In this document: positions 1 through 57,937 of the stretch, piece after piece
Layout of the letters: each line of letters starts with the position of its first letter
Numbering within the stretch: position 1 is the first letter of the stretch
Virus record (IMG/VR): IMGVR_UViG_3300023170_000014
Location: 12,391 to 76,390 of that record
Direction: 5' to 3' (one strand)
Origin: a virus
Lineage: Duplodnaviria > Caudoviricetes
DNA: 64,000 bases
Notes under the pieces: generated by a model
What the model was told of the DNA's origin: nothing
The model's input: only the letters and a program-made list of their open reading frames with translations
The model's database searches: none
Translations under genes and position numbers: made by a program

Positions 1-2
1 TC

Positions 3-1262
3 ATTAATAATAAAAAATGGAAAATAGTTCGTCCTAAGCATAATCCACAACCAGCAGAATATGCAAGACCAAAGGGACAATGGGGTATGTATTCAAAAAC
101 CGCTATGTTTGAAAATAGTGAATTTACAGACTCTTTTGTTAGAGAAAAACTTATTCCTGCAAGAAAATCTCTCCCAGAAGTTACAAAAAAAGAAGCGATT
201 AGAAAAGCAAAACAAATATGGGAACAATTTGAAAATCACCCATTTGGAAATGCAATTCCCGGAAGTAGTAATGAACAATTAAAATATCTTGTAGATGATA
301 TAGATCTATCTTCATCTGGGATAACTCAAGAAACTCTTAATAATCGTTTTTATGATCCAAACCAAGTTGACATTTTTAGAGAAAAAAGATTAAAACAACT
401 TTTTGAAAAAGGAATTTCAATTGAAAAATTTTATATTTATTATCTTCTACAAATAGCAAAAGAAGCGTTGTGGAATCATCTTTTTAATAATACAATGCCT
501 GTTTATGAAATGGATCAAGCAGAAAAAGAATTGATGAATTCTTTATCAAATGATGATAAAAATAATCTTTATCTTATATTTAAAAATACTTATCACGAAG
601 AGTTTAAAAGATTATTTAATGGTAACAAAACTTCAGCAAATAAAAAAGACGCATGGGAAGCCGTTCTTGATGGAGAGATGGGCCACGATATCCTCACTAC
701 TGGAAGTTGGGAAGAAGTAAAAAAACAAACCCTCAAGTGGCTTAAACAACTTAAAGACGGATATATAAATAAAGAAAATCCTCATGATAATGAAAAGATT
801 GATTCCGAAGCAAAAGAGCAAGACGGGCATGCAATGGAAGATCTAAAACTTTACGAAGAAAAGAAGCGCTGGTCATTCCACTTTGATCATGGCAAGCATC
901 CATATGATCTTATCATTCAGCCTGTTGGATATAAAGAATCAAATAATAATTGGAGACACGGAGACTGCGACCTTTTTGCAATAAAAAAACATCAAGAAAC
1001 AGGCTGGCCGATCTATAAAATTGCTGAAGGGCCAAATGACGGGGCGTGGCACTTTTTCTTAATTAATCCCGAAACTGGAGAAGGATTAGATGGAGATGGT
1101 CTTAGACCTGTAGAAGAAATACTTCAAGAACACGATCCAGACTTTAATCCTGAATACGAAGAACTAGGAATTTACCCTGATGTTTTTGAATCTTCGCTAA
1201 AAGAAGCAATAAATTACAGAAAAGGATATAAAGAATCTAAATTAAAAGAAATATGTGTATAG
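3..1262 (+). CDS. 5'-truncated modular (putative head-cargo) protein with C-terminal papain/transglutaminase-like module
   Basis: The frame of ORF 87..1262 is open back to position 3 (INNKKWKIVRPKHNPQPAEYARPKGQWGMYSKTA...), so the gene starts upstream of the window. Last module has GDCDLFA...WHFFL...LDGDG (Cys-His-Asp). KTA/KTS/KDA/KES linkers. Confidence 0.6.
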   Translation: MNNKKWKIVRPKHNPQPAEYARPKGQWGMYSKTAMFENSEFTDSFVREKLIPARKSLPEVTKKEAIRKAKQIWEQFENHPFGNAIPGSSNEQLKYLVDDIDLSSSGITQETLNNRFYDPNQVDIFREKRLKQLFEKGISIEKFYIYYLLQIAKEALWNHLFNNTMPVYEMDQAEKELMNSLSNDDKNNLYLIFKNTYHEEFKRLFNGNKTSANKKDAWEAVLDGEMGHDILTTGSWEEVKKQTLKWLKQLKDGYINKENPHDNEKIDSEAKEQDGHAMEDLKLYEEKKRWSFHFDHGKHPYDLIIQPVGYKESNNNWRHGDCDLFAIKKHQETGWPIYKIAEGPNDGAWHFFLINPETGEGLDGDGLRPVEEILQEHDPDFNPEYEELGIYPDVFESSLKEAINYRKGYKESKLKEICV

Positions 1263-1270
1263 CGAAGTTT

Positions 1271-1280
1271 TAATAATAGA
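1271..1280 (+). promoter_or_regulatory. putative phage late promoter element (TAA-N3/4-TAGA)
   Basis: TAATAATAGA in the short gap before ORF 1300; same motif recurs before other structural units. Confidence 0.4.
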
Positions 1281-1299
1281 ATAGAAAGATTGGATAATT

Positions 1300-4200
1300 A
1301 TGAAAGTTGATTTTCAAAACATAGAAGAAGGACAAAATGGTAAACTATTTGCGGTCTTAGAAGAAGACCAACTTCCGGTAGGTCAATTGTTTTATAAAGT
1401 TGATAATAATAATAAAAATCTTATTGTAGATTATATCTATATTCCTCGTAAGTATTGGCGCGAAGGTGGAATTAGAGAACAACTTATTGCTGAACTTCAG
1501 AGTATGTATCCTGCCTATTCTTTTTCTATGAAACAAAATCAAAAACAATCTTATCTTTTAAAAGAAGCGCCCGCTCGTAGTAAAGCCCAATTTAGATATA
1601 TGCAAGGTATTTGTAATGGCTCTATTGAGCCTCCAAAGGGGATGACTCGCGCTAAGGCTTGTGAATACGTTGAAGGACAAAAAAATTATAAAAGTTTGCC
1701 GGATAAAAAATCAGCGCGCCCATCAATCCGCGACACAAAAGGTTCTGAGTTTTTAAGAGATATTATCGCTGAATACGTTGGGGGAGAAAGCGTAGCATCA
1801 CTTGCAAAAAAATATAATGTTTCTACAAATGCAATTAAAAATTATTTACAAGAAAACAATATTCCTTCTAGAAGTCTTAAGGAGCATAGGCTTCATCCAA
1901 AAACAAAAAAACAAACGCCGCCAATTCGGGAGCGTGTTCCAAACAGAAAACAAAAAAAACTTCTTGTACCCAAAAAACAAAGACCAGATACTCTTCCTAA
2001 TTTTAAATTTAAAACAGATCATGATTTATTAATAGATGAACTCCCTCAAGAATTACAAGACGAAATTAATGAAAGAAAGAAATTAGAAGAAAGTGGAGAA
2101 GTCCCATTTATTCCTCAAATGAATTGGGCAAGCCCCTATTCTGGCGACTATGTACCTTCTGCATCAGAAATACTTGGCGATAAAAAAATGAAACCTAAAG
2201 AAAAATATAGAAGTGAAAAAATTGCAAAGTCTACTCTTCATAAAAATGTTCATACAGGGAAACCATGCACTTGTGGTTTTTATAGACCAGAACAAAAACA
2301 ATCTAAGTGGAAACAAGTAACCGCATCTAAACTAGATAAGATTATTAAAGACGATCCTAAAGTGCTTAGAACAGAAGAGGGGCAAAAGGTTCTTGACTGG
2401 ATGAAAGGTCTTCCCGAAAAAGTTGATGACTTTCTGCCTTGGATTGTAAGAGAATATAAAAAGAAAAGATTAGAACCTTCAATGGTTGGAGAAGGCGAAG
2501 ATGCTTTTGTGGAACTGATGCAAACTACTCCCATTGAAGGAACTGAATTTAGAGGATTTTTAGACGAAGCAACTCTTTCTCATTGGGCAGATTGGTATGG
2601 AAGTAATTCTCCTACTCGTCGTGGCGTTAACATCATGGAATTTTCAGTAAAAGATATTTTTGATAAAATCCAAGAATGGGACTTAGAACTTCTGTCTCAA
2701 GGAGTTTCTTTAGATGAAGAAAAGAAAAAAGACGAAAAAATTATTTATGAGTGGCCCGATGGATGGTTTATAAGGGATCTTTCACCAGAAGAGTGTGATT
2801 ATGAAGGTCAAACTATGCAACACTGTGTTCGTCGTCAAGGATATGGAGACAGAATAGAACAAGGTCTAATAAAAATTGTTTCTTTAAGAAGTCCAAATAA
2901 TAAACCTCACGCTACTTTAGAAATAAATAAAGACGGCTCTATTCAACAAATTCAAGGAAAACAAAACCTTCACCCTCTTGCAAAATATAGAAAAAGAATT
3001 CGTCAATTTATGACAGATCCCAACGGGTTTGAACGACTTTTTAATAAAAAACCGACTCTTCCCGGGGGTCGCAATATAACCGAATGGCAAGAGTTTAGAA
3101 ATATGGATGGAGAGTCTAACTATGATCCAAGTATGATTGCTATTGATGAAGAAGAAGAATTTGATTCAAAATATGACGAAAATATGAGGCGACACCCTTA
3201 CGCCGGTCCCGGGGGGTTTGATAGAAACTATAGACCAGAGCATTATGGAATCTATCCGCCAGAAGCAAGCCCAGATAAGCCTGTTGATATGGCAAGATTA
3301 TTAACCTCTTTGCCAGAAGATATCTCTCAAGAAGATCTTCAAAAACTATTAGATTATGCAAGAAGAACGGGCCAAGTAGATCAACTTGCTAAAATAATGC
3401 AAAGTCAACAAACAAGAAATCAAGACTTATTGATAATTCCTAGTTTTGAAGATCAACGCCGTGGGGGATGGAGAGATGCTTTTGAAAAGATGACTATGAC
3501 AAATCCAAATGATCCTAATTATAAAGAAAAATGGAACGAGTGGCTATCCTCTATTTGGAGCGAAGATCCTAAACAATTGGCAAAAAATCTTGTTGAAGTT
3601 AATAAAATAAATCAAAATTGGGGGGAATCAGGATCTGAAGATGAAAGTCGTGCAACAAGTATTCTTAAAATTATAAACAAATATAATTCAATGAATCAAT
3701 TGCGTTCAATGTTTAATCCAGAAGAAGACGAATTATTAAATTGGTCTGAGTTTGATGAAACAGACTTTTCAGATTATCGTCAAAGATTTGAACGAGGTTT
3801 ACATAAGGGAGAAGGTATTTCACAATTGCCCACTAGAGTTGATGAGCAACAACTTTCACTTCTGTCTAAGTGGAGAAGGACTTCTAAATGGAAAAAGACT
3901 TCAGTTGATAATTGGGATGATATTGAAAACGAAGAACACGAAGAACACACTCAAGAAGAGGCTAAATGGGAAGGTCAAGCCGCAGCCATGTATAATTTGT
4001 CAATAGTTCCTAATTTTATGCAATCTCAAAGCATTTCTAGTTATGGCGGCCTTTACCGCGAAGTGGGTGCTGCTAGTAAAACTCAAGATTTTTATGATAA
4101 TTTTATAGACCGCGCCTCAGAATATTTAATAGACATATTTGCAGGATCTGAAGAAAGTTGGGTTCTTGATGAGGAATACCAAGATTCTTTTTATGATGGT

Positions 4201-4755
4201 TTTTGGGAAGAAACTAATAAAAATTGGCAAAATTATATAGAAGCACTCAAATATGACATTAAAAAGAATTTACAAGATGAACCTATATATGAGGCAATAA
4301 TAAAAGACTGGCCGTGGCAAGAAGAAGGAGCAATTGAAAGTTTTCAAAATACAATAGAAAAAACTAAAGAATTGGGATTAGGACATTTACTTTGGATTTT
4401 TGAACGTTATTATTCTGAAATTTATGATAAAGCAGAATTGATGTATGCAAATGATCCTAACTTTGCATGGATAAAAGGAGAACTAGATAAACAAATTCGT
4501 GAAGTTATTAACAACGCTGACGAAATAATTGCACAAGGGTTAGGCGCTTCAAATCCAGATTACAGTGCTGATATGTCTAAATGGTATGCTGAACCTGTTT
4601 CAAAAAGAGAAGAAGAATGGCTTGGGCCTGAAGAAACTGATCAAAATGAAGCAAGAAAGCATCGTAAAAACATTAGAGATAAGTGGAAAGTGCAGCCGGG
4701 TAAAAAACTTGAATGGGCAACTGAAGAAGATTTTCCTAAGAAAAGATGGGAATAA
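1300..4755 (+). CDS. large modular protein: GNAT-like N-terminus, PARSKAQ head motif, HTH, Zn micro-module, PcfJ-like domain
   Basis: IVDYIYIPRKYWREGG (GNAT motif A-like); SVASLAKKYNVSTNAIKNYL (HTH); EGQTMQHCV...SLRSPNNKPHATLEI...QIQGKQN (PcfJ-like). Confidence 0.6.
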   Translation: MKVDFQNIEEGQNGKLFAVLEEDQLPVGQLFYKVDNNNKNLIVDYIYIPRKYWREGGIREQLIAELQSMYPAYSFSMKQNQKQSYLLKEAPARSKAQFRYMQGICNGSIEPPKGMTRAKACEYVEGQKNYKSLPDKKSARPSIRDTKGSEFLRDIIAEYVGGESVASLAKKYNVSTNAIKNYLQENNIPSRSLKEHRLHPKTKKQTPPIRERVPNRKQKKLLVPKKQRPDTLPNFKFKTDHDLLIDELPQELQDEINERKKLEESGEVPFIPQMNWASPYSGDYVPSASEILGDKKMKPKEKYRSEKIAKSTLHKNVHTGKPCTCGFYRPEQKQSKWKQVTASKLDKIIKDDPKVLRTEEGQKVLDWMKGLPEKVDDFLPWIVREYKKKRLEPSMVGEGEDAFVELMQTTPIEGTEFRGFLDEATLSHWADWYGSNSPTRRGVNIMEFSVKDIFDKIQEWDLELLSQGVSLDEEKKKDEKIIYEWPDGWFIRDLSPEECDYEGQTMQHCVRRQGYGDRIEQGLIKIVSLRSPNNKPHATLEINKDGSIQQIQGKQNLHPLAKYRKRIRQFMTDPNGFERLFNKKPTLPGGRNITEWQEFRNMDGESNYDPSMIAIDEEEEFDSKYDENMRRHPYAGPGGFDRNYRPEHYGIYPPEASPDKPVDMARLLTSLPEDISQEDLQKLLDYARRTGQVDQLAKIMQSQQTRNQDLLIIPSFEDQRRGGWRDAFEKMTMTNPNDPNYKEKWNEWLSSIWSEDPKQLAKNLVEVNKINQNWGESGSEDESRATSILKIINKYNSMNQLRSMFNPEEDELLNWSEFDETDFSDYRQRFERGLHKGEGISQLPTRVDEQQLSLLSKWRRTSKWKKTSVDNWDDIENEEHEEHTQEEAKWEGQAAAMYNLSIVPNFMQSQSISSYGGLYREVGAASKTQDFYDNFIDRASEYLIDIFAGSEESWVLDEEYQDSFYDGFWEETNKNWQNYIEALKYDIKKNLQDEPIYEAIIKDWPWQEEGAIESFQNTIEKTKELGLGHLLWIFERYYSEIYDKAELMYANDPNFAWIKGELDKQIREVINNADEIIAQGLGASNPDYSADMSKWYAEPVSKREEEWLGPEETDQNEARKHRKNIRDKWKVQPGKKLEWATEEDFPKKRWE

Positions 4756-6047
4756 TGAAAAAGCGATCCTATTTTGAAGAATTTAATGTTGAGCATGGAT
4801 CAGATAATGTCAGTGAATATTTCTTAATAAAAGACGAAGATCAAATTATTGGTTCTGTTTACTATGCCCCTGTACCTAACGGCGACGGAACTGCAATTTT
4901 TTATTTGGGATATGGCGACAAACTTCATCCTTATGAAAATACAAAAGAAATAGAAGAACTTAAAAGTAAATATCCTCGTCTTAGTGTAGAAATTTTTAAA
5001 TGGATAAGAAAAAACTTGCCGCAACCTTACTATGCTGCATTTGCAAATGAAGAATTAAAAAGAGCATTAAGAGCAGAGCCTACTGGAATGAGAAGTGTTG
5101 ATATAACAACAGGAGAGCCAGTAGATATTCATATCATACGTCGTTCTAGTGAAAGGTTTATTATGAGTAGTAATGAAAAAGTTGATAGAGTAAAAGAAGC
5201 ACTTAAAGAAAAAGATGATGAAGAATACAACAATGCAATGATTGATCTTTGGGAAAGTATTTCTCCGGGAATGGGTAAGCAATATATAGAAAAATATCAT
5301 AGCCCCCCAAAAAGTGAAAAAGAATTAAAAGAGTGGGCAAATGAAGAATTAAAAAAAGCAGATCCTACGGGTACTAAAACAATGGATAAACCTGAACAAA
5401 GAAAAAAGAAATCATCTGTTGACTTAACTCCCCCAGAGGGCGTTCGTGCTGCTGCTCGTAGAGGTATTAAATATCATTCTGAAGGAAAAGCGGGTAAAGG
5501 CTTTGAATCTGCGACTCTCACTCGCGCTCGCAAGATTGCAGAAGGAAAAGAATTAACCCCAGAGCATGTTAAGCGTATGCACTCTTTCTTTGAAAGACAC
5601 GCTGGAGGTCGCTCAGAAAAGGCTGGCAAAGGCGAAGTTACACCTTGGGATGTTGCTTGGCTGGCTTGGGGCGGGAATGCAGGAAGATCTTGGGCTGCAT
5701 CTAAAGTTAAAGAAATGGAAAGAAGTAAAGAATCTTCTAAGAAAAAACGGGGTTTTATGTTTAGCCCACAAAGAATTAAAGACGCTGTTGATAATAAAAA
5801 TTTTAAAGAAGCCGAAAGGCTTTTAGAAGAATATAGGATGACGCTAGATGGTAGCAGAAATCCAAAAGAAATTAATGCTGTGTTAAAATCAATTAAAAAC
5901 TTAAAAGAATATATTCAAAGAAACAAAGAGGCAAAGAGTAAATGTAATTGTTGGGATGGGTATAAAAGAGTGCCCGGAACAAAGCCTTGCGCTCCCGGCT
6001 CTTGTGAAAAATGTGATAACCACAGAAAAAAGAAAAAGAAATCATAA
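4755..6047 (+). CDS. modular head-associated protein
   Basis: Contains the phage head-protein domain PPEGVRAAARRG...VKRMHSFFERH...VAWLAWGG..GRSWA and a C-terminal CWDGYKRVPGTK..GSC motif. ATG overlaps the upstream TAA (ORF track start 4746). Confidence 0.6.
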   Translation: MKKRSYFEEFNVEHGSDNVSEYFLIKDEDQIIGSVYYAPVPNGDGTAIFYLGYGDKLHPYENTKEIEELKSKYPRLSVEIFKWIRKNLPQPYYAAFANEELKRALRAEPTGMRSVDITTGEPVDIHIIRRSSERFIMSSNEKVDRVKEALKEKDDEEYNNAMIDLWESISPGMGKQYIEKYHSPPKSEKELKEWANEELKKADPTGTKTMDKPEQRKKKSSVDLTPPEGVRAAARRGIKYHSEGKAGKGFESATLTRARKIAEGKELTPEHVKRMHSFFERHAGGRSEKAGKGEVTPWDVAWLAWGGNAGRSWAASKVKEMERSKESSKKKRGFMFSPQRIKDAVDNKNFKEAERLLEEYRMTLDGSRNPKEINAVLKSIKNLKEYIQRNKEAKSKCNCWDGYKRVPGTKPCAPGSCEKCDNHRKKKKKS

Positions 6048-6051
6048 AATA

Positions 6052-6060
6052 TGATATTAT
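6052..6060 (+). promoter_or_regulatory. extended -10 promoter (TGnTATTAT)
   Basis: TGATATTAT upstream of the AGGAG RBS and GTG start of the GT2 gene. Confidence 0.4.
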
Positions 6061-6085
6061 GTTAGTATAAAGTTAGGAGATTAAT

Positions 6086-6853: not shown

Positions 6854-6854
6854 G

Positions 6855-7268: not shown

Positions 7269-7285
7269 TCCTATTAGCGATAGAT

Positions 7286-8191: not shown

Positions 8192-8192
8192 A

Positions 8193-9181: not shown

Positions 9182-9808
9182 ATGTACAAAACTGCAATTG
9201 CTCACGTTGAAGGTGAACTTTCATACGATGAGGCTCTAAATAATTTTAAAACTGCTTATCCAACATACGATGTTAGAGCAGTTAAGCAATCTAATTATGG
9301 TTGGATTGCCTTTATTCAAAAAGAAGCATATCAAGATCAAAATGTTCAAGATGGCGTTCCTGCTGAAATGGATGAACTTTCAAGTCCCGGCGCTGATTCT
9401 GAAATGCTAGAAGTTGAAATTGGCGAAGGTCCAAAAGAAACTTATGGCGAAGAAGAAGAAAAGCAAGAAGGGCTTATGGAAAAACTAGAAGAGGCTCTTG
9501 ATGAAGTAGAGCGTCTAGTTTCTGAAATTAAAGATTCTGAAGAAGATGAAGAAGAGGTTAGACCATTTGACACTCCAGAAGAGATGGATGACGAATTGGA
9601 TCTAGAAGAAGATGTTGAAGAGATGGAAGGTATTGAAAAAGAAATGCCTCTTACCATCGCAAGAGAAAAAGAAGCCGGTGTAACTCTAAAAACTGCCTCT
9701 AGAGAAGTAGAACAACTAATTAGAAGAGAAAGAGAATTTAGAGGATACAAATTAGCAGGAATTGAAGAAAAGAAAAATAGTTTTGTTGCAAAACTTGTTA
9801 AGAAGTAA
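9182..9808 (+). CDS. acidic head-assembly/scaffold-like protein
   Basis: AAGGAG RBS; very Glu/Asp-rich; multiple KTA/KQS/KEA motifs; just upstream of the protease. Confidence 0.55.
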   Translation: MYKTAIAHVEGELSYDEALNNFKTAYPTYDVRAVKQSNYGWIAFIQKEAYQDQNVQDGVPAEMDELSSPGADSEMLEVEIGEGPKETYGEEEEKQEGLMEKLEEALDEVERLVSEIKDSEEDEEEVRPFDTPEEMDDELDLEEDVEEMEGIEKEMPLTIAREKEAGVTLKTASREVEQLIRREREFRGYKLAGIEEKKNSFVAKLVKK

Positions 9809-10080: not shown

Positions 10081-12828
10081 ATGATAACTAAATATACAAA
10101 TTGTGAAGTTATTGAAGTTAAGAGTGCAGATGAAAAAATAGAAGGGAATGCAAAGTTTTCTTCTTTTGATCATATTCCTAAAGATACTTATCGAACGAAC
10201 GATGGGTATGTTTATGTTAAAGTTAGGGCTATTTCCTCAAGAGTAAATAAAAACTTTGATGGTTGGCCGGTTAATGAACTTGCTGGGATGGATGAGGAAG
10301 AGTTTAGAAAGTTAACTTCTAAAATAGAAAAAGAAGCAGGAAGCAGTCTCAAGAAATGGCAAAAAGAATTAAAAGGTAGAGGTTTTTCTTTTAACAAAAG
10401 TGGTGGTGGACACATAAAGATAACTCACCAAGATCATCCAACAGGTAAAAATGTTGTGATGGCTAGTACTCCGACTGTTGAAGAGCATGAAATTGATAAT
10501 ACTACAAAAATTTTAGCCCAGAAGTTTCCAAAAGAAATGAAGGGCTTTGTATTTAAAGGTAAGAGATACGCTTCTTTAGATCGTCTAACTTTTACCAAAG
10601 ATAGCGCAATCAAATCTAAAGGCGATTATGGATTTAGAACCTTTATTGGACGACCAATTTTTATTGATCACAATAATTCTGATCCTGAAAGAACAAGAGG
10701 CGTTATTGTAGATGCAATGCTACATATTGAACCTGCACATAAAATTTCTAGCGATTCATACTGGGGAGATGCGCCAAGTAACCACAAACCCGAAACTTGG
10801 ATTGAACTTTTGTTAGAGGTTGATGCCAAGTCTTTCCCTAAACTAGCAAGCGCTCTTATTGAAGGTAAAGTCAATGCAGTTTCAATGGGTTGCAATGTTG
10901 AATATACTGTTTGTTCTGTCTGTAACCATAAAGCAGCAAATGTAGATGAATATTGTAATCATATTAAGAAAAAGGGAACTACATTTAAAACTGGTAATGT
11001 AAGCAAACTCGCTTACGAAGATTGTTATAATGTAAATTTCTTTGAAATATCTGCCGTATTTGATCCAGCAGATGTTACTGCATTATTTACTGAGCCTGTT
11101 AAAACAAGTCATACAAAAACTGCAATGGATCTGCCAGAACATCACTCAGAAGTAATAAAAGCGGTTGAAGATTTGATGGATATTGTTAGAAGAGAAGCAG
11201 AAATGGTTGAAGATAAAATTACAGCCGGGTTAGATCCATTAACTCTTGAAGAAGAAAGACCTTTTATTGAAGAATTTGATGAAACTTTTAAAATTTTAAT
11301 TGATAAATTAAAAAATCTAGAAGGTTCTTATGAATTAAATGAAGTATATCAACTTTTTAAAAGATACAAAGATTTTTATGAAAAGGTCGCTGAAAAAGTA
11401 GAGTCTTGGCACGAATTGCCAAAAAAAGCCTTTGATATGTATGATCAATTAGCAAACACTTGGCACAAAAGACTTAACGATTGGGTAAAAGTTTTTGCAC
11501 ATCCTGCTAAAAAAGTACAAGAGACTTCACTTCTTGAAATGCAAGAAAATTATGACAGAAGTTTAAGCAATGAAGATTTAGACTTTTTAATGGATACTGG
11601 AATTGATCCAAATTCATTAAATAAAAGCAGTCATCGCTTAAAAGATGCCAATCCCGAAACTAAAGAAGTAGAAACAATTTTTTCTAAGGCTTCGTCTGTA
11701 GAAAAACAGGCGGATTCTATAACTGCTCCTAATAAGGTTGATACACTCAAGACTGAAAAACCTTGTCCTATCGGCCTAGCAGGAGAGTGTGGGCTTGATG
11801 ATGAATCAGGTAGATGTGAGAAATGTGGTTATCGTGAGCCACCAGCGCCTCTAGATGATCCAGATTTATCAAAAGCGAAGGACTTTGATCGTCAGAAGGA
11901 AGAACAAAAAGATGAAACCCGAGATGAAACCAAAGACCTTATTGATCAGTTAAAGAGAACACTATCAAAAAATCAAAAACGGAGTGTTAATAGTAAGATG
12001 AATGAAAATACAAAAATAACACTTACGGCAAATGTTGAAGAGGTTCCAAGCGACGAAAAACTAGCCGATCTTGGTTGGATTCTTCCAGAAAAAGAGGCCG
12101 GTGTCGCTTCTAATACGGTTCCTGTAGCAGAAGATGGTCAATCCGCTTCTGATAGACCAAAGGAGCAGAGAGTGATTTCAGATCAGAAAAAACCTGTTGA
12201 AAGCACTACTAAGGTCGCTTTAGGTGAATTGCCACAAATTCCACAACCGAATGGTGGCGATTCTTCTCCGCAATACAAAGGTGATAAAAATAATCAAACT
12301 TCAGGAATTTCTGAACACGAACCATCACCTATGGCTGAACAATATCAGAGTGTAAAGCGAGAAGTTGAACAACCTCAATATGCCGACGAGGGTTATACGA
12401 AAGATATTAAAAACCATAACCCAAGTACGATGCCAGAACAGTATCAAAAGGTTAAGAAAACGGTTGACAAACCGCAGTACTCCGATGAGCCGGGAACTTC
12501 AGGTATTTCGGAACATCATGCAGAGTTGCACAAAAGCAACGTCGAATCTCCAGTTCTAGCCGCTATTAAGTTAGCAGATCTAGAAGTAGAACTAGGCTTA
12601 AACGACGCGGAGATGAAGTATGCAAGAGTTGCTGAGTTAGAGAATGAAGACCTAACAATTGTACAGGCCAAGTATGAGACTCTTTCAAAGATTAAAGAGG
12701 CTGGCCTTACAAAGAAAGAGGCTTCTTCTAATAAAAAATTGGCAAGTTTTCCCTCATTGAAGGGCGTCAAGGAATCTTCAGTAACAAGTTCTGCTGGTAG
12801 CCTCCCTGACGATGCTATTTTTGGCTAA
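10081..12828 (+). CDS. capsid maturation protease-scaffold fusion with HicA-like insertion
   Basis: RAISSRVNKNFDGW, FIDHNN (His), VSMGC (Ser), CSVC...CNH, FFEISAVFDPAD are typical of Bxz1-like prohead proteases; C-terminal scaffold; lies upstream of decoration protein and MCP. Confidence 0.8.
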   Translation: MITKYTNCEVIEVKSADEKIEGNAKFSSFDHIPKDTYRTNDGYVYVKVRAISSRVNKNFDGWPVNELAGMDEEEFRKLTSKIEKEAGSSLKKWQKELKGRGFSFNKSGGGHIKITHQDHPTGKNVVMASTPTVEEHEIDNTTKILAQKFPKEMKGFVFKGKRYASLDRLTFTKDSAIKSKGDYGFRTFIGRPIFIDHNNSDPERTRGVIVDAMLHIEPAHKISSDSYWGDAPSNHKPETWIELLLEVDAKSFPKLASALIEGKVNAVSMGCNVEYTVCSVCNHKAANVDEYCNHIKKKGTTFKTGNVSKLAYEDCYNVNFFEISAVFDPADVTALFTEPVKTSHTKTAMDLPEHHSEVIKAVEDLMDIVRREAEMVEDKITAGLDPLTLEEERPFIEEFDETFKILIDKLKNLEGSYELNEVYQLFKRYKDFYEKVAEKVESWHELPKKAFDMYDQLANTWHKRLNDWVKVFAHPAKKVQETSLLEMQENYDRSLSNEDLDFLMDTGIDPNSLNKSSHRLKDANPETKEVETIFSKASSVEKQADSITAPNKVDTLKTEKPCPIGLAGECGLDDESGRCEKCGYREPPAPLDDPDLSKAKDFDRQKEEQKDETRDETKDLIDQLKRTLSKNQKRSVNSKMNENTKITLTANVEEVPSDEKLADLGWILPEKEAGVASNTVPVAEDGQSASDRPKEQRVISDQKKPVESTTKVALGELPQIPQPNGGDSSPQYKGDKNNQTSGISEHEPSPMAEQYQSVKREVEQPQYADEGYTKDIKNHNPSTMPEQYQKVKKTVDKPQYSDEPGTSGISEHHAELHKSNVESPVLAAIKLADLEVELGLNDAEMKYARVAELENEDLTIVQAKYETLSKIKEAGLTKKEASSNKKLASFPSLKGVKESSVTSSAGSLPDDAIFG
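12268..12520 (+). repeat. about 2.5 imperfect ~33-aa tandem repeats in the scaffold region
   Basis: SGISEHEPSPMAEQYQSVKREVEQPQYADEG / KDIKNHNPSTMPEQYQKVKKTVDKPQYSDEP / SGISEHH. Confidence 0.7.
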
Positions 12829-50450: not shown

Positions 50451-52022
50451 ATGCAATATAGATTTATTTGGAATATAGATCAAGATCAAATTCACTTTGT
50501 AAATAATTTTGATTTTGAAGAACCCCTAGAAGATAATTATATCACAGGAGACTATCTTCCTGCTGATAAATCTATTTCTTTATATAAAGAAGATGTTAAA
50601 GTTCCAATAAATTTAGATTATTTTGTTCGTCTATGGAAAGCGTCTGAACCAGATAAAGAGATTGTTAGAGAAAGAGTAGAGGTAGTGAGTTTAAATAAAG
50701 TTTCAAACGTTAGACTTGCCTCAAGTCAAGAAGAAAAGTTGGTCGCCCAGTTTTTAATTGCTGAACATGGTCAAGATAGTATGTTAAATCTAGATAAACT
50801 TTTTGAAGCAAATCCTACTCCCGATGATGTAAGAAGATACTTTATTCCTTTTATAAAGAAGTTTAATCAAAACACTTTTAAGCAATTCCCTGACAACCTT
50901 CCTAGAAACGCAAAGCAATGGAGAGCCTTATCAGAAGAAGAAGTTTTTGCTTATGTAGAATATTTTGCAAATAATATATCAAGAGGCGATCAACAACTTG
51001 CTAATTCTTTAACTCAAGCAATGATGGATAAATGGGAAATGGATGGAGTTCCATTTGATCCTGCGGAATATATCATAGATGAGGGAATGATAAACTGGAA
51101 TGAAGTTCGATCTTTACTATTAAGAGAATTTGGCAATTCATTTAATTTGTTTTCTAAATGGGAAAAAGTTTCTGACTATGGAGGCTGGACAAACTGGGAA
51201 ACGTTTTTGACAAATAACATTATGGAAAACGAATTTAATATATATAAATATTTTTTAGATTTAGCAAAAAAAGCCATTAGTAAATACCCAAGTGAAACTT
51301 TTTTTGAATTAAAAGAAGTTTGGCGTGAAAAAATTGAAGAAATGGTTATTGATGTACATAACAGAACCTGTGACGAAACAGAACGAATTGATGATATTCT
51401 GAAAGTAGACTTTGATGAAATTTTAGGTCATTGGTTTGAAAAAGTAAACGAAGAATTAGGTTACGATGAAGTTTATTCTTTACAAAGAAAAAATCAAATT
51501 CTAGATAAGTGGGAACCCGAAAGTTGGTGGAAAGGGTCTAAATGGAATAAAATCTCAGATCATAATGGCTGGACAAACTGGGAAACTTGGAACGTTAATC
51601 TTATGATGGAAAACGATTATGATGACTATTTGTATTTCACGGAGTTAGCAAAGAAAAATATTTCTGTTGATGACTTTGCTATGGCAGCAATCGAAAGAGT
51701 AATTGGTCCATATAATGAACAACTTAGAAACGATTTTGCTGAATATACCGATGAAGAAGAAATTTTAATGCAATTAGAAAATGATGATCAAAAATGGCGA
51801 AGCGATGCTGAAAGAAGATATCCAGACGATCCAGAGGCTCAAGAAGATTATATTAGAAAAATGCGAGAGATTGTTTATGGCCTAATGGGAATTCCTGAAC
51901 CGACAGATATAGCAAATCATTGGCTAGATGAGTCCAAAGTGAACTGGCAAGAAATTTATGAAAATTGGGTTAACAATACGAAAGAATCAAACTGGAAGGT
52001 ATTGAAGTGGAACAGGATTTAA
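50451..52022 (+). CDS. modular protein with two tandem GWTNWET domains
   Basis: SKWEKVS-DYGGWTNWETF and SKWNKIS-DHNGWTNWETW. Confidence 0.65.
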   Translation: MQYRFIWNIDQDQIHFVNNFDFEEPLEDNYITGDYLPADKSISLYKEDVKVPINLDYFVRLWKASEPDKEIVRERVEVVSLNKVSNVRLASSQEEKLVAQFLIAEHGQDSMLNLDKLFEANPTPDDVRRYFIPFIKKFNQNTFKQFPDNLPRNAKQWRALSEEEVFAYVEYFANNISRGDQQLANSLTQAMMDKWEMDGVPFDPAEYIIDEGMINWNEVRSLLLREFGNSFNLFSKWEKVSDYGGWTNWETFLTNNIMENEFNIYKYFLDLAKKAISKYPSETFFELKEVWREKIEEMVIDVHNRTCDETERIDDILKVDFDEILGHWFEKVNEELGYDEVYSLQRKNQILDKWEPESWWKGSKWNKISDHNGWTNWETWNVNLMMENDYDDYLYFTELAKKNISVDDFAMAAIERVIGPYNEQLRNDFAEYTDEEEILMQLENDDQKWRSDAERRYPDDPEAQEDYIRKMREIVYGLMGIPEPTDIANHWLDESKVNWQEIYENWVNNTKESNWKVLKWNRI

Positions 52023-55000
52023 TTCAAAAAGAATCTAATATTTTAGATCCAATTCATGACACTTTAGATCAAGATGTATTTAACGGGATGACTCCCAAAA
52101 GTGCTTTTTTTGAATATCACTTAGATCACGTTAGAGAAGTTTTTAGACAAAACAACTTTAACCCATATGCTTTTGATTTCTATTTAACAGGTTCTCTTTG
52201 TACATATCAATATTCGGAAAAATCAGATGTAGACATTTCTATTGTTTGTAACGCCGACGAGTTTGATGAAGAAGATCGTGCAGATCTTATTGCTATTGTG
52301 ATTGAATCTTTAGACGGCACCTTCTTTCCTAGAACTAAACACCAATATCAACATTTTGTTCAACCAATTGGTGTAGACATTGAAGACCTTTTTATTCTCG
52401 GTCTTAGAAGCGCGTGGGATTTTCAAAAAAACGAATGGGTTCTTAAACCAAAAAGACCAACTACAGATATTAAAAAAGAAAAGCCTGATTGGATTCTAAT
52501 GGGGGTTCAGGTATCTGACAAAATTAATACTTTGATTGATAATCATAAATATGAAGATGCTAAGGCAATGTATAAAAAAGTGCATCAAAAAAGAAAAGAA
52601 GATCAGATTGACTATGGCGATTACAGCGAAGGTAATGTTATTTATAAATTTTTAGATAATAACGGAACATTTGATCGCCTAAAAAATGTTGGACAAAGAA
52701 TTGCTTTTCAAAAAGAAGCATTTACAAAAGACGATTTTGTAAATTATTATTATGAATCTACTTTTTATAATAGATCTTTTCGTCAAAAAACACATCTAAA
52801 CTCTAAAGGGTATCCTTGCGACTGCACCTTTGGCAAAAAAGACCTAAAAGCAGTTGCTCAATATTATAATAATATAAATAAAACCGATAGTGAAGATTTT
52901 AAATTCAGTTTTAATAAAAATAGCAACGAGGGTGAAGAATCCAAGATAAAGCAAATCGCTCAAAAAATCCTTGATAAGCAGATCAGTGAAGAATCAAAAT
53001 GGAATAAAAGATACCCCGTTTGGAAAGAGCGTTTACAATCTATTGTTGATATGGGCGTTTTAACGGAAGAAAGCATTAAATTTTGGGGAGGAATTATTTC
53101 TTTGTACAAAAAAGCAGTACAAAGAAATGATGTGATGATCAATAATAATGCATATAGAATGTATCTTTTTAGTGGACCAACTGATCCTTTATATAGAGAT
53201 AAAGATTATTTACAATCTTATAAAGAAGATTTTAGAAAACTTTGGACGGGAAACTTTGGTAAAAATACAAAAGTTGGAGATTTTATTAATAGTGAAAACT
53301 ATGAGTTTCTTGGCGAATCATATGACTGGAGCGCCGAATCAGAGTTTATTGGGACAATAGATCGCTTACTTTACACAGATATTTCTTTAGATGAAGAAAT
53401 AGATTTTAGTTGGCGCTGGTGGTTTAGTTTACAAAACTCAGACAATAATCAATTAAACAATAAATTGCAAAAAATTGAAAATCTTTTTAATCAAAAAATT
53501 AAAGAAATGAAAAAAGATAATCATCTAGATTTTGGGTTTTTGACTACCTTAAATAAAGTTTCTATGCTATTAACCGATAGATATGGAAACTATGTAGAAA
53601 ATTTTGAAAATATATTAGATATGATTTTAGACGGATCAATATTTAAAATGCGTCCAGAAGAAGTTTTAGATTTCTATGTACAAAACAGGTCTAACTATCC
53701 GGCTAGAAATACTATATTTGAAGGTGCCGTAAATGCAATTCAATATATGAACAGTATAAGGCTTCAATATCTCTTAAATGAATATAAAGACTTAAGATTT
53801 CCTACAAATTTAGAAGGAATGGATAGTTTTAATGAACTAAGCCTTTCTCTTCGTCAGATAGAAACAGAAACAAAAGAAAGAGAAGAATATAAAGAATTAT
53901 TAAGACAATTTAAAGAAGGAGAAGTCGCATACGAATCAGATAGTCCTGTTTTTACTTTTGAAGTTAAAAAAGGTAATCCCGAAAAAGCAAAACCGGGAGT
54001 TTGGGGAGTATACCGACTTGAAAGTACAGACGATTTAGAATTAGAAGGAAGGATATGTAACCACTGTATTGGAAGTTGGGAACAGCCTCATATTAGAAGA
54101 AGGGATGAAGATCTTAATACTGTTTATTCTGTGCGCGACCCGGATGGAGTTCCTTGGACAACTTTGGAATTAGATAAAGAAGGGGTGATTCTGGGACAAG
54201 CGTTTGGTCGTCAGGATCATGCCGTAAGACAAAATGAACAAAAGATTTTAAATGCTTTCTTCGGACAAGAAAGTTTTCAAAGACAAAGCAAAAATCCAAA
54301 TAAATATATAGTCAGAACAAGAAATGGTAAAGAGTATGTTTATAACGCATCAAGCACAGAAGATGCAGTCGAACAACACAAAGAGGCAATAAAAAGCATA
54401 CCACTTCCATTTGATTACCCCCGATGGGCTTATGAAGAAGAAATAAAAGGACTCAAAGCAGTTGCGGCATATGGTGCTGGTCACGATTGGTTTGATAAAC
54501 CAGAAGGACAAAGAAGTGGTCTTTATTATGAGAGCGATTTGCCCGTTGCAGAAGAAGATATAGAAACAACTGAATATCATATGGAACCAGATGTTTTTTG
54601 GGGACTTTCAAATATACCCGAAATATCTAGTGGTGATGAATTAGAAACGCTCTGGCAATGGGTAGAAGGTGACTATGGCGAGAGCGCTTATTTGTTTGAT
54701 ATGATGAATTATTATTATCCAGATGAAGACACCCCGGTAGAGGAACTAGAAAGAGATGACTATGGATATGCTCTCGTTAGAATAGTAGAGCCATATACTT
54801 TTGACGGGTCATATTCAAATGTTTTTAATTTTATAAATTCTATTGTAGAAAAATACGAAAATTTGCTTTTTGATGAAGAAAATAATATTTCAGATGAAAT
54901 ATGGGATTTTTATGAATCAGTAAAAGGACTTGGAACATATATTATTTTAACCTCTATTTCTACAGGACAAATTGAAAAAATTATTAATACCTATGTAAAT

Positions 55001-55954
55001 GCTTTTGATTTTTATGTACAAAAACAAACATCTATGTTTTACAAAGAAAACAAAAAAAACAAAATTGCAATTTTAAATGGAATTAGAATAGTTTTAAAAG
55101 ATTTAATTTCAAGTGTTGATTATACAACTTCGGTAAATGATATATACCATTTGTTTGATGATTCAGAAATTTCTAAAAGTCTAGAAAGTGAATATGGAAG
55201 TTGGAACTATAATTACGACTTTGAAAATTCTTACGTTGAATTTCAAATAGAGCCAAAATCAATGCCTAAAGAAGAAATTAATCAATCAAGAACATATTTA
55301 ATAAATTATGTTCAATATGCAATTAATTTGTCTGAAGAAATAAAAGAATTGGCGAGAAATTTTTTTGAAAGAAATTTAAACTCTCCTATTCAAAGAACAA
55401 TTTGGTTTAATCAAAATGAAAATACATTAACTGGACCTCCTTTAGAACTTGAAGAAAAACAAATTCAGCCGGGAGATAGTGATTCGGATAAAGAAAGAAA
55501 ATTGATACAACAAGACCTTCTGCGAAAAGAAGTTGATGATTCTGGTCTGTATGAAACAAAACTTAGAGAACTAAGAGATATTGTATACTACATTGCTAAA
55601 GAAACAGGATTAAATGCAATTGTAAATCCAATAAATAAAATGTTCAATGACAGATTTCAACTTGGATCATATAATTCTAGATTTTTGGAAAGAAGCATGA
55701 ATGAATTAATTAATTTATTAGAATATGCAAAAAATACTATTTATATGAATGAAAATCCAGACGCTGGAGCAGGAGGAATTGCTGGTGGGCAAATAAACTT
55801 TTATATGATGCCGCCAGAACCTAGCACAGAAGAATTCGAAAGATGGGAAAGGGTACAAGAAGGTTTATTAGCGACTACAGAACCTTATAAGGGAGAAGAT
55901 AGTTGGGGTTCTGAAGGATTTGCCCCAGATACAAGTAGGCGAAGAGGAATTTAA
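52007..55954 (+). CDS. large modular protein: Pol-beta-type nucleotidyltransferase, Zn micro-module, PcfJ-like domain
   Basis: YLTGSLCTYQYSEKSDVDISIV (GS..DxD), EGNVIYKFL; LELEGRICNHCIG...YSVRDPDGVPWTTLEL. Confidence 0.7.
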   Translation: MEQDLIQKESNILDPIHDTLDQDVFNGMTPKSAFFEYHLDHVREVFRQNNFNPYAFDFYLTGSLCTYQYSEKSDVDISIVCNADEFDEEDRADLIAIVIESLDGTFFPRTKHQYQHFVQPIGVDIEDLFILGLRSAWDFQKNEWVLKPKRPTTDIKKEKPDWILMGVQVSDKINTLIDNHKYEDAKAMYKKVHQKRKEDQIDYGDYSEGNVIYKFLDNNGTFDRLKNVGQRIAFQKEAFTKDDFVNYYYESTFYNRSFRQKTHLNSKGYPCDCTFGKKDLKAVAQYYNNINKTDSEDFKFSFNKNSNEGEESKIKQIAQKILDKQISEESKWNKRYPVWKERLQSIVDMGVLTEESIKFWGGIISLYKKAVQRNDVMINNNAYRMYLFSGPTDPLYRDKDYLQSYKEDFRKLWTGNFGKNTKVGDFINSENYEFLGESYDWSAESEFIGTIDRLLYTDISLDEEIDFSWRWWFSLQNSDNNQLNNKLQKIENLFNQKIKEMKKDNHLDFGFLTTLNKVSMLLTDRYGNYVENFENILDMILDGSIFKMRPEEVLDFYVQNRSNYPARNTIFEGAVNAIQYMNSIRLQYLLNEYKDLRFPTNLEGMDSFNELSLSLRQIETETKEREEYKELLRQFKEGEVAYESDSPVFTFEVKKGNPEKAKPGVWGVYRLESTDDLELEGRICNHCIGSWEQPHIRRRDEDLNTVYSVRDPDGVPWTTLELDKEGVILGQAFGRQDHAVRQNEQKILNAFFGQESFQRQSKNPNKYIVRTRNGKEYVYNASSTEDAVEQHKEAIKSIPLPFDYPRWAYEEEIKGLKAVAAYGAGHDWFDKPEGQRSGLYYESDLPVAEEDIETTEYHMEPDVFWGLSNIPEISSGDELETLWQWVEGDYGESAYLFDMMNYYYPDEDTPVEELERDDYGYALVRIVEPYTFDGSYSNVFNFINSIVEKYENLLFDEENNISDEIWDFYESVKGLGTYIILTSISTGQIEKIINTYVNAFDFYVQKQTSMFYKENKKNKIAILNGIRIVLKDLISSVDYTTSVNDIYHLFDDSEISKSLESEYGSWNYNYDFENSYVEFQIEPKSMPKEEINQSRTYLINYVQYAINLSEEIKELARNFFERNLNSPIQRTIWFNQNENTLTGPPLELEEKQIQPGDSDSDKERKLIQQDLLRKEVDDSGLYETKLRELRDIVYYIAKETGLNAIVNPINKMFNDRFQLGSYNSRFLERSMNELINLLEYAKNTIYMNENPDAGAGGIAGGQINFYMMPPEPSTEEFERWERVQEGLLATTEPYKGEDSWGSEGFAPDTSRRRGI

Positions 55955-57937
55955 ATGGATAATCTAAGTGAATATATACTAAGATTAGTAAGAAATAATC
56001 CTGCGGCAAAAACAGTTGTTGAACTATTATCTCCATTTGGAGAAGTTTATGTAGTTGGTGGAGCGGTTAGAGATGTTCTTCTTCAAAAGAAACCAAAAGA
56101 CATAGATTTGGTAGCAAGAGTAGACGAAGATATAATTAAGTCTGTATTAAGTAATTTCCCAAATGCAACATTAAATAAAACTGGAAAACAGTTTCCAGTA
56201 TATAGGTTTAGATATCAAAACGAAGAAGTAGAAATTGCTTTACCAAGAATAGAAACTAAGGTTGGAGAAGAAAGTAAAGATTGGGAATTTAAAAGTGATC
56301 CGTCTATTCGAATTGAAAGAGATTTAGAAAGAAGAGATTTTACTGCAAACGCAATTGCCGTAAACGCTCAAACCGGAGAGATTGTAGATCCTTTAAATGG
56401 AATTGATGATATTGAAAAGGGATTGTTAAGAGTTATCAATGAAAACTCTTTTAGAGATGATCCTTCAAGAACGCTTAGAGCATTAACTGCAATAAGCAAG
56501 CACGGTTTACAACCAGATGAAAAAACTAAAGAACAAATGCGTAAATATGGCCCGTACTTGGCTAAAATCGCTCCAGAGATTATGGGCATGGAATTAGATA
56601 AAATACTCAGCGGAGAACATCCTCATCAAGCAATACAAATTGGTCAACAAACCGGAGTATTAGAACACTTCTTGCCAGAAGTTCATACAACATTTGGTTA
56701 CGATCAAAAAAACAAACATCATAATTATGATCTAGGGACTCACCTGATGGAAGTTGTCAAAAATATGGCTCGCAGATCTGATGATACAGATATGAGACTC
56801 GCGGCTTTGTTTCACGATATTGGCAAACCAGATTCTGTTTGGTACGACGAAGAGGGAAATGGTCACTATTATAAAAATGATTCTGGTCAAGGACAAGACC
56901 ATGAAACTGTTGGCGCACAAATGGCTGAAGATATTTTAAGAAGATTAAGATATCCTGCAAACAGAATAGCAAGAATTAAACAATTAATTCAAAATCATAT
57001 GTTCCCCATTTTTAATTCATCAAAGGGAGCAAGAAAGTTTCTTAATCAAGCCGGTTCTTACGAAATTGCTCATAATTTACTTGATCTTAAAGAGTCAGAT
57101 TATTTAGGTAAAGGCAATGATAGTGCTACAAGAGAAATGTCTGATTTAATGAGGCAATTAATTGATGCTGAATATGAAGCACAAAATGCTTTTACTCCCA
57201 AAGATTTAGCAATTAATGGCAACGAAGTTATGCAACTTTTAGGCATTGATAGTGGCCCTCAAGTGGGAGAAATACTGAAATCTTTGATGGATATTGTTGT
57301 TGACAATCCTGAAATGAATACAAAAGATAACTTGTCTTCATTTATTAATAACTTCTATAAAAGTTCATCAAATGTAGAGTCAGCAATTCTTGAAATATCA
57401 AAGCAAATTAGAAGAGAAGCCGCTTGGCGCGACGTTGAAATGAAAGCAAAACGTCTAAAAGATGGCGGTCAAGTAGTAATAAACACCAATGCTGAAAATG
57501 CAGTTGAAGGAGTAGTACAGGGTGATAATGGTATTTACGAATGCATAATATATAGAGAAGACCCTAGCAGTCAAAGAATTACGCATTGGAACTGTGAGTG
57601 TAAATGGGGTCAGTATGCATACGGAAGAACAAGAAAATATAAGAAATTTGAAGGTCGGCCATGTTCTCACGTTATGGCAATGTTTTGGGAGTCAAGATCC
57701 TTACCAGTAGGGTATTTTGGAGCAGAGTTTGATCCTAATCAAACTTACAGTTTTGAACCAGATGCTCCAAACTATCAAGTTGTTCAACAAGATGTTTCTC
57801 AAGCAGGTAATCCGTTAGAGTTAGAAAATCAAAATTCTGAGTTTCCTCCTATGCCGCAAGGACAATCTCCTGCTCCACCTAATTTTGAAGAGGGGGAAAG
57901 AAGATCGTCAATTAAAAATAAATGGAAAAGGATTTAA
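55955..57937 (+). CDS. cca: CCA tRNA nucleotidyltransferase with HD domain, fused to a SWIM-like zinc-finger module
   Basis: VYVVGGAVRD...KDID, DLERRDFTANAIA, FRDDPSRTLRA, AALFHDIGKP; C-terminal WNCECKWG...RPCSH. Confidence 0.85.
   Translation: MDNLSEYILRLVRNNPAAKTVVELLSPFGEVYVVGGAVRDVLLQKKPKDIDLVARVDEDIIKSVLSNFPNATLNKTGKQFPVYRFRYQNEEVEIALPRIETKVGEESKDWEFKSDPSIRIERDLERRDFTANAIAVNAQTGEIVDPLNGIDDIEKGLLRVINENSFRDDPSRTLRALTAISKHGLQPDEKTKEQMRKYGPYLAKIAPEIMGMELDKILSGEHPHQAIQIGQQTGVLEHFLPEVHTTFGYDQKNKHHNYDLGTHLMEVVKNMARRSDDTDMRLAALFHDIGKPDSVWYDEEGNGHYYKNDSGQGQDHETVGAQMAEDILRRLRYPANRIARIKQLIQNHMFPIFNSSKGARKFLNQAGSYEIAHNLLDLKESDYLGKGNDSATREMSDLMRQLIDAEYEAQNAFTPKDLAINGNEVMQLLGIDSGPQVGEILKSLMDIVVDNPEMNTKDNLSSFINNFYKSSSNVESAILEISKQIRREAAWRDVEMKAKRLKDGGQVVINTNAENAVEGVVQGDNGIYECIIYREDPSSQRITHWNCECKWGQYAYGRTRKYKKFEGRPCSHVMAMFWESRSLPVGYFGAEFDPNQTYSFEPDAPNYQVVQQDVSQAGNPLELENQNSEFPPMPQGQSPAPPNFEEGERRSSIKNKWKRI

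Follow-up and report, generated by a model that had tools for sequence, protein, structure and literature searches.

How are the parts of a giant phage protein joined, and might the joining peptides also release them? The question is raised by a stretch of 64,000 nucleotides from a tailed phage (Duplodnaviria; Caudoviricetes; IMG/VR record IMGVR_UViG_3300023170_000014). This whole stretch, hereafter the window, is bases 12391-76390 of one 76,390-base virus contig, and window coordinates are used unless stated. A first-pass annotation of the window pointed to seven open reading frames (ORFs): 3-1262, 1300-4755, 4755-6047, 50451-52022, 52007-55954, 55955-57937 and 59899-60774. These were described as strings of unrelated modules, separated by basic linkers ending in K/R-x-A/S and often containing S-K-W. 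The former was proposed to be the cleavage site of the phage's own prohead protease and the latter a possible packaging signal. All of the peptides listed are present where the annotation placed them. We find that the two motifs belong to one junction peptide, located at the edges of modules that related phages exchange. Our preferred account of its role, held tentatively, is processing of cargo for the phage head.

Note that the first ORF extends beyond the window. ORF 3-1262 is the C-terminal 419 amino acids of an uninterrupted ORF of 3236 amino acids (contig 3942-13652). This starts 8.4 kb upstream of the window, and the other 2817 residues are outside it. Together, this giant ORF, ORF 1300-4755 and ORF 4746/4755-6047 form a modular coding sequence of ~4800 amino acids. 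The remaining four ORFs make up a second cluster (50451-60774). All junctions, modules and modular ORFs given by coordinate below are on the plus strand, as are the genes for ORF 9182 and the protease.

Two motifs form a single junction peptide

The SKW and K-x-A/S motifs, first listed as separate signals, are two halves of a single junction peptide, S-K-W/R-K-x-(x)-A/S. In this phage, the junction takes the forms SKWKIA/G, SKWKIIS/S, SKWKKTS/V, SKWEKVS/D, SKWNKIS/D, SKRKRVIA/A and SKVA/S, where the slash marks the module edge. The giant ORFs of distant relatives contain SKWKIA, SKWEIA, SKWKIS, SKWKMA, SKWKKIA, SKWKKKS, SKRKIS and GKWKIA, with ten junction copies in relative G001 and four in relative G003. 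A variant, KKWKIV, is found in the giant ORF (12..29), where relatives have GKKWKMV, GKKWKKV or GKKWRIV. ORF 1300-4755 has the junction SKWKQVTAS (2302..2328) and a double junction, SKWRRTSKWKKTS (3865..3903). In ORF 50451-52022, SKWEKVS (51153..51173) and DKWEPESWWKGSKWNKIS (51504..51557) each precede a DUF7249-like repeat.

The motif is highly specific. The pattern [SN]KW[KRNE][KRIQ][IVT] occurs eight times in the seven ORFs, compared with 0.017 expected from within-protein shuffles, and is absent from the other 47 ORFs (15199 amino acids). A similar distribution is apparent in G001, a contig of 129,640 bases with an estimated completeness of 82%. Here, frames of at least 150 amino acids contain seven occurrences, six in the giant ORF and one at the C-terminus of a SWIM protein.

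Junctions mark module edges, where relatives exchange modules

The junction delimits modules and sits at edges that are defined independently of it. We used 21 module boundaries, taken from profile-match edges and homology breakpoints in tool outputs. The K.[AS] motif is located within 6 amino acids, on either side, of 10 boundaries, and within 10 amino acids of 14; none of 2000 random sets reached either value. Furthermore, K.[AS] occurs no more than 10 amino acids after 11 of the 14 internal W-junction anchors, compared with 8% of all positions, a test that is partly circular because five of the 11 cases are KGS inside WWKGS.

The protease-scaffold gene described below has 26 relatives, with 66-88% identity, and a search of IMG/VR with the protease alignment gave four contigs (G001-G004), the best segment having 59% identity. 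At the same place, the giant ORFs of relatives are single frames of 3214 and 2165 amino acids. Compared with P0006, a protein of 979 amino acids, ORF 1300-4755 has an insert of 157 amino acids, running from four residues after KKSA to EKIAKSTL. Ahead of the sequence ATPELIQ.., the reading is ..WWKGSKRKRVIA in our phage, ..KTSKWNKVS in protein P0002 and ..KTSKWKRVIA in contig L003, in each case after unrelated upstream sequence. Elsewhere, P0002 joins ..PKKPWDFRSKVAA directly to PNPFLPRLYH. The same site in our phage reads ..PKKPWDFTSKWKIAG, followed by 140 extra residues, an edge at ..TKVSA, and then MPNQFLPRLYH. Breakpoints with respect to P0002 fall right after VIA, KVS, KIAG, KVSA and YKES and, after QPVGYKES, our phage, P0002, G001 and G003 all diverge. 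Between the giant ORFs of G001 and G003, all three of the block edges inspected are at SK[WR]K.[AS]. Two islands, 73-89% identical, occur in G001 and G003 in an order that differs from ours.

Modules also separate and fuse at these positions. In relatives, the nucleotidyltransferase-like module of ORF 52007-55954 is a separate ORF of 230 amino acids, with a stop exactly after GQRIA, where our ORF reads on. Similarly, the SWIM module of ORF 55955-57937 is a separate ORF of 188-199 amino acids. Modules do swap at the linkers, a point that the first-pass annotation had proposed to check, and they are also inserted, split and fused there. As a separate observation, G001 encodes a DNA helicase in two adjacent ORFs (L008:15036-17252, minus strand), which match consecutive parts of one PHROG profile (151-463 and 457-696); this gene may be split or interrupted.

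A long connector often precedes the junction

In this lineage, the junction is often preceded by a conserved connector of 45-60 amino acids which, like the giant ORF outside the window, the first-pass annotation had overlooked. The connector, LGPEETDENEAKKHR..I.DKW, opens with (Y/W)LGPE-x-TD-x-NEA-K/R-KHR-x-x-I-x-DKW and continues as either EPxxWWKGS or K-x-Q..L-x-WATEEDFPKK-x-W. The genome has 10 copies, shared among the giant ORF, ORF 1300-4755 and ORF 50451-52022. One of these (4576..4752; ..LGPEETDQNEARKHRKNIRDKWKVQPGKKLEWATEEDFPKKRWE) ends ORF 1300-4755, and the stop comes right after ..FPKKRWE in both this ORF and its orthologue P0006. In the first core of the connector copies, 100 codon pairs differ synonymously and 51 non-synonymously. 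Therefore, the connector peptide is under selection and is no recent DNA repeat.

The connector is rare elsewhere. A profile search of 1.84 billion representative proteins gave only eight matches. Four are the giant ORF itself, a fragment that is 99.5% identical to ORF 1300-4755, a protein of 523 amino acids (the length of ORF 50451-52022), and a repeat protein with no relation to these. The others are P0002 (1950 amino acids), P0006 (979 amino acids), and two fragments. The connector is absent from relatives G001-G004, though the short junction is present in their giant ORFs of 3214 and 2165 amino acids. In IMG/VR, no close relatives of ORF 1300-4755, the connector (A2) or P0010 were found. 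No confirmed relative of the connector was present among JGI metagenome contigs, where the back-translated WATEEDFPKK pattern picked out one contig of 4.6 kb. Note that the connector locus scan used the four closest copies, the first alignment being too variable. The connector had no match among PDB sequences (best E 0.54).

Free-standing proteins end with the same basic tail

Part of the junction recurs at protein C-termini. Three of the 234 stop-to-stop frames of at least 60 amino acids end with W[KRNE][KRIQ][IVTL]; these are ORFs 50451-52022 (KWNRI; 52005-52019), 55955-57937 (KWKRI; 57920-57934) and 59899-60774 (KWRII; 60757-60771). The first-pass annotation had named these ends and, like the internal motif, they proved specific. 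In G001, one of 622 frames ends with the motif. The tail Trp is invariant. Basic residues follow, and then a hydrophobic residue at the extreme C-terminus, as in the three tails above and in KWKKI and KWKRM of relatives.

Stand-alone SWIM proteins end with ..TKWKRI, like the fused ORF 55955-57937, and the Pro/Gln-rich tether that precedes this ending diverges. The C-terminus is TKW[KR][KR][IM] in six of eight stand-alone SWIM homologues (57-84% identity). Of the remaining two, one has TKWRKI plus four more residues, and the other has diverged and is without the tail. ORF 59899-60774 has a single relative, with 80% identity, that keeps ..KWRII.

K-x-A is enriched in the scaffold, and the array adjoins head genes

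If junctions were cut by a prohead protease, the same motif might be expected where such a protease acts. The candidate is a prohead protease fused to a scaffold (10081..12828; 915 amino acids), recognised from PHROG matches and synteny. It matches phrog_18299 ('head maturation protease'; E 1.1e-24) and phrog_2774 (E 1.1e-55) and, across 159 amino acids, shares 41% identity with Myrna gp97; the decoration and capsid genes lie downstream. Its Ser268, part of an ..AVSMG.. motif, is invariant. The whole protein contains K.A 18 times, compared with 6.5 +/- 2.4 in shuffles; the scaffold part alone has 13 copies, compared with 4.1. Upstream of the protease, the acidic ORF 9182 (9182..9808; 208 amino acids) has six, compared with 1.2. 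In each case, none of 1000 shuffles reached the observed count. No enrichment over shuffles was found, in the protease-scaffold and ORF 9182, for K[AS], K..[AS], K...[AS], [AS].K, R.[AS] or E.[AS].

Similar patterns are evident in relatives. Homologues of ORF 9182 keep the N-terminal MYKTA and six of eight further [KR]x[AS] positions, with exchange of K and R. Across the 20 aligned relatives, which are not mutually independent, every scaffold part has an excess of K.A (7-13 copies compared with 3-5 expected). In Myrna gp97, [KR].A occurs 31 times, compared with 15.6 +/- 3.4, and none of 1000 shuffles matched this. The large Myrna head-module proteins gp87 and gp96 are also enriched (reached by 4 and 15 of 1000 shuffles, respectively); the Myrna portal, gp102 and gp112 are not. 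These observations support K-x-A as a scaffold-enriched motif, as expected for a prohead-protease site. In the scaffold of this phage, enrichment of the K/R-x-A/S motif originally proposed is seen for K-x-A but not for R-x-[AS]. The C-terminal tail of the protease-scaffold (12700-12825) is also conserved, with ..PDDAIFG in our phage, ..PDDAIFN in its relatives and, in Myrna gp97, ..NDSLMFG. This tail is of its own kind, and distinct from the KW tail.

Directly after the modular array come genes for a glycosyltransferase and two fibres, then ORF 9182, the protease-scaffold and the capsid protein. The order of giant ORF, glycosyltransferase, fibres, ORF 9182 homologue, protease and capsid is the same in three relatives. 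Two domains in the modular proteins are also found in head modules elsewhere. First, 223 phage records (cluster C mycobacteriophages, and phages of Gordonia and Rhodococcus) have a match to the SWIM region, inside a large protein whose gene precedes the capsid gene by a few kb. This protein is gp96 in Myrna, adjoining the protease-scaffold gp97. Second, the phrog_2859 domain at the centre of ORF 4746-6047 matches 59 phage records in head modules, with annotations of prohead protease, minor head protein, capsid fusion or coiled-coil protein. In G001, the domain is part of a protein of 1015 amino acids, encoded two genes after the terminase. Association of the modular proteins with the head, which had been proposed for all seven ORFs, thus has circumstantial backing from synteny and two head-module domains; the second cluster fits less well, as noted below.

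Processing of head cargo and alternative explanations

What might the junctions do? The reading that we prefer, while rating it below an even chance, is that the phage, an uncultured myovirus, makes giant modular proteins of the polyvalent type that shuffle fast, with junctions that are processing sites for head cargo. The K-x-A/S part of the junction would be cut by the prohead protease that the phage encodes, so that the precursor of ~4800 amino acids yields individual modules. On release, each module would retain a C-terminus that is basic, K-W-x-x-(I/V/A), the same ending that the three free-standing proteins encode. The K-W tail could then be a common C-terminal docking peptide, most likely for retention in, or loading into, the prohead. 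The common ending of junctions would also let recombination between them move modules in frame. We propose that the insertions, deletions, permutations, fissions and fusions seen among relatives arose because of such in-frame recombination. Cleavage, packaging and injection of the modules are what we infer from sequence; within this scheme, the packaging-tag step is the weakest.

Several observations count against the processing of head cargo. The second cluster is ~37 kb from the head genes, past a block of tRNA and nucleotide-metabolism genes. The protease had no Pfam match, even at E up to 10 for the protease domain, and no PDB match by profile, so its identity comes from PHROG and synteny only; an AlphaFold2 model of the protease domain was unusable (pLDDT 39). 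The check that the first-pass annotation had suggested, counting K/R-x-A/S, gave a favourable result at module edges, as described above, but not for whole proteins. Over the seven ORFs, [KR]x[AS] occurs 118 times, compared with 106.5 +/- 8.7 in shuffles, and 31 of 300 shuffles reached 118. In ORF 1300-4755 the motif is depleted (12 compared with 18.8), and K.A is not enriched over the polyproteins as a whole. The 21 boundaries used to assess module edges were picked after the sequences had been seen. Natural tails end with I or M, not A or S, making the position of a cut relative to the motif ambiguous. In T4 and SPN3US, the known head-targeting and propeptide signals are at the N-termini of separate gene products, with cutting after Glu; ours are internal or C-terminal. 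Recognisable enzymes are few, and the sole module passing Pfam cut-offs as an enzyme is the CCA-adding enzyme with its HD domain. Finally, the junction Ser is encoded by TCT in 19 of 21 copies from three phages, compared with 41-48% of all Ser codons in the same ORFs. This hints at a DNA-level or recombinational cause.

The TCT bias is among the points that fit a different explanation. In this, the junctions are uncleaved and the giant proteins are single chains, the junction and connector being flexible spacers and homologous linkers for in-frame exchange. We regard this as possible, if somewhat unlikely. Module insertions, deletions, permutations and fusions are all at junctions, and the sequence TCTAARTGG occurs eight times in the window, compared with 1.5 +/- 1.1 in shuffles. 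The junction TCT sites in the window are at 2302, 3865, 3883, 51153 and 51537; others are in the giant ORFs of G001 and G003. The seven ORFs contain no HExxH string and match no peptidase family at E up to 1 (the relatives' giant ORFs have HExxH strings, two in G001 and one in G003, as string matches only). In addition, the N4 virion RNA polymerase and ArdC are delivered uncut (PMC5512222). However, the uncleaved-linker explanation does not account for the same tail on three unrelated free-standing proteins, kept at 44-84% identity while the tether drifts, or for the enrichment of K-x-A in scaffolds. Moreover, the Lys codons of the junction, and the codons of the connector, vary freely. Hence, conservation is mainly at the peptide level. 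Note that TCT-AAR-TGG is also a stop plus a start in the +2 frame. We considered, but did not adopt, a DNA-level promoter, or stop-start, reading of TCTAAATGG; there is no intergenic copy and the other frames are closed.

A bolder form of the head-cargo reading is also conceivable. Here, the three adjacent ORFs would be a true polyprotein of a double-stranded DNA phage, yielding ~4800 amino acids of cargo, with the protease cutting at about twenty S-K-W-K-x-A/S junctions. The K-W tag would be a universal capsid-loading peptide, and any module that gained a junction would automatically be loaded, released and delivered. We think this unlikely.

Slightly less probable still, in our estimation, is that the basic KW tail is a linear motif directed at the host. 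It might be a C-terminal ClpX degron, of the MuA kind, or a nucleic-acid or membrane contact, that times removal or localisation after infection. The tails are, indeed, basic, with a terminal hydrophobic residue and a Pro/Gln-rich tether, and the C-terminal ClpX degron of MuA is RRKKAI (PMC8138137, Table 1). The second gene cluster, outside the head module, would also be consistent. Yet a C-terminal degron would not work at an internal position without prior cutting of the protein, and the invariant tail Trp is missing from the MuA signal. Nor does this reading account for why the SWIM module and phrog_2859 are linked to head modules. That the motifs are functionless, arising by chance from Lys/Trp-rich composition or recent tandem duplication, is scarcely credible; the proteins are rich in Lys (7-13%) and Trp (up to 4.4%), and several modules are paralogous, but the observed counts for the junction motif, scaffold K.A and module edges were never reached in shuffles, the motif recurs in relatives with unrelated flanks, and synonymous divergence indicates old copies under selection.

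Modules of the individual ORFs

Most of the giant ORF is acidic, Trp-rich sequence that matches no Pfam or NCBIfam family. Where such regions were modelled, in ORF 1300-4755, they are predicted, at low confidence, to be helical. Within the window, the giant ORF has an SKTA edge (93..104), after which our phage and P0002 diverge. Next is a conserved module of 109 amino acids (615..941; residues 3022-3130), ending with QPVGYKES. This is 85-89% identical in the giant ORFs of G001 and G003, where SKWKK follows directly. Searching GenBank phages by tblastn, with window positions 1-6100 or with this module, gave no match. The last module (942..1259; 106 amino acids) has GYKES on both sides (930-941 and 1227-1238). 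By language-model features, with a score of 0.97, it resembles free-standing phage YunG-like proteins, which we treat as a lead only; Pfam, with E allowed up to 10, gave nothing for it. A search of a protein atlas with a module of the giant ORF gave no usable match.

ORF 1300-4755 (1300..4755) encodes 1151 amino acids, with helix-turn-helix and PcfJ-like modules. Its AlphaFold2 model has a mean pLDDT of 45, and is usable only for residues 150-190 and 480-590. A mini-module of 59 amino acids (1537..1713; residues 80-138) has edges KQS/KEA and KKSA. With the pattern ..SKAQFRYMQG..MTRAKACEY..SLPDKK, it is 73-77% identical inside the giant ORFs of G001 and G003, in a different order. We presume a likeness to small DUF3008 proteins; in Pfam, the mini-module has no match at E up to 10. 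The segment inserted with respect to P0006 (1726..2238; residues 143-313) contains the helix-turn-helix module. The PcfJ-like domain (2746..3000; Pfam E 8.8e-11) lies in the region of residues 480-590 that is modelled with confidence (pLDDT 67-90 by 10-residue blocks). For this predicted structure, the best 50 structural matches are all GNAT acetyltransferases, at borderline Z scores of 7.6-9.5. A literature search on PcfJ returned only C. elegans pCFJ plasmids. The adjacent ORF of 433 amino acids (4746..6047), with a start at 4755 that overlaps the upstream stop (TAATG), has the phrog_2859 domain at its centre (5367..5753).

In the second cluster, the first ORF (50451..52022) encodes 523 amino acids. 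It is followed by an ORF of 1315 amino acids (52007..55954), with a weak nucleotidyltransferase-like module that ends GQRIA (RIA at 52697-52705) and a weak PcfJ-like domain (53798-54247). This ORF has a GTG start, and its first 16 bases are shared, in another frame, with the end of ORF 50451-52022; KESN is near the overlap in both. The third (55955..57937) encodes a CCA-adding enzyme with an HD domain and a SWIM-like module (57389-57703), after which come the Pro/Gln-rich tether and the C-terminal KWKRI. The last (59899..60774) encodes a protein of 291 amino acids with no known family. A multi-module make-up can be confirmed for ORFs 1300-4755, 4746-6047, 50451-52022, 52007-55954 and 55955-57937, but not for 59899-60774, which has no domain match and carries only the tail. 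The 'diverse enzymes' of the first-pass annotation were overstated. Only the CCA-adding enzyme with its HD domain is clear; otherwise, there are the weak nucleotidyltransferase-like module and two PcfJ-like modules, to which no activity is assigned.

The surrounding genes are those of a myovirus contig. PHROG matches identify a contractile-tail module (sheath, baseplate and fibres), a decoration protein and an HK97-type major capsid protein, the last sharing 55% identity with its counterpart in cluster C mycobacteriophages, for example Myrna. Neither portal nor terminase was found on the 76,390-base contig, which is therefore a partial genome; a terminase was found in G001. Two glycosyltransferase-like genes are within the structural block, at 6086-6853 (a weak Pfam match; position kept in relatives) and 15282-16538 (phrog_2170; E 2e-41). 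Eleven tRNA genes are clustered at 43283-48037, on the minus strand, amid nucleotide-metabolism genes, and the CCA-adding enzyme gene is at 55955-57937.

Comparison with known systems

T4 gp21, with a capsid-targeting sequence, and phiKZ gp175 exemplify prohead proteases that cut internal head proteins. In encapsulins, and in the HK97 protease with its capsid-targeting tail, a short C-terminal peptide on a flexible tether loads cargo into a shell of the HK97 fold, though with consensus sequences that differ from the KW tail. As in the T4, phiKZ and SPN3US type, our phage has a prohead protease gene in its head module. K.A is enriched in the scaffold and K.[AS] at the edges of the putative cargo modules, but not over the cargo as a whole. 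Unlike the motif of those phages, ours is basic, has Ala or Ser, and links many modules per chain. In SPN3US, the prohead protease gp245 cuts many head proteins after AXE, and cargo is ejected into the host; multiple motif copies are found in N-terminal propeptides that are degraded (PMC10052503). No shared N-terminal peptide was seen in translations of our ORFs. The MuA signal resembles ours in being a short basic stretch, plus a terminal hydrophobic residue, of a phage protein (PMC8138137, Table 1). It differs in having no Trp, in belonging to a single protein, and in serving remodelling or degradation rather than punctuation of modules.

Polyvalent proteins offer a second comparison. Found in phages and conjugative elements, they are very large, contain unrelated domains, and are encoded by terminase-portal phages, adjoining virion genes (Iyer et al. 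2017, PMC5512222). The same article proposes that they travel with the DNA, likens them to the polyproteins of RNA viruses, and ascribes processing to embedded zincin (HExxH) peptidase domains, which many but not all of them have. In the text available to a term search of that article, 'linker', PcfJ and DUF3849 were not found. As for the signature domains of the published polyvalent network (ArdC-N, LPDs), only a DUF3849 match below threshold (E 0.0039; 17.6 bits compared with a cut-off of 25) and the PcfJ-like domain were seen here. Our literature search, made at the level of listings, returned no description of a junction-punctuated phage polyprotein.

The implications depend on what the junction does. 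If it is a cut-and-tag signal, it would amount to a simple set of rules, readily carried from one protein to another, by which cargo is loaded into an HK97-fold head. It would also give a mechanical account of how polyvalent proteins form, and reshuffle, without an embedded peptidase. K-x-A would then be a new prohead-protease specificity, in a clade of protease-scaffolds that cluster C mycobacteriophages also have. Should the proteins remain uncut, they are still a clear case of conserved in-frame linkers at which phages exchange modules.

The closest known kinds are polyvalent proteins and protease-processed internal head proteins, and this array looks like a variant of those. As in polyvalent proteins, disparate domains are found in one chain, beside virion genes, both here and in three relatives. 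Unlike polyvalent proteins with such a domain, the seven ORFs are without HExxH and, in place of an embedded peptidase, have a repeated junction peptide that is shared with free-standing proteins.

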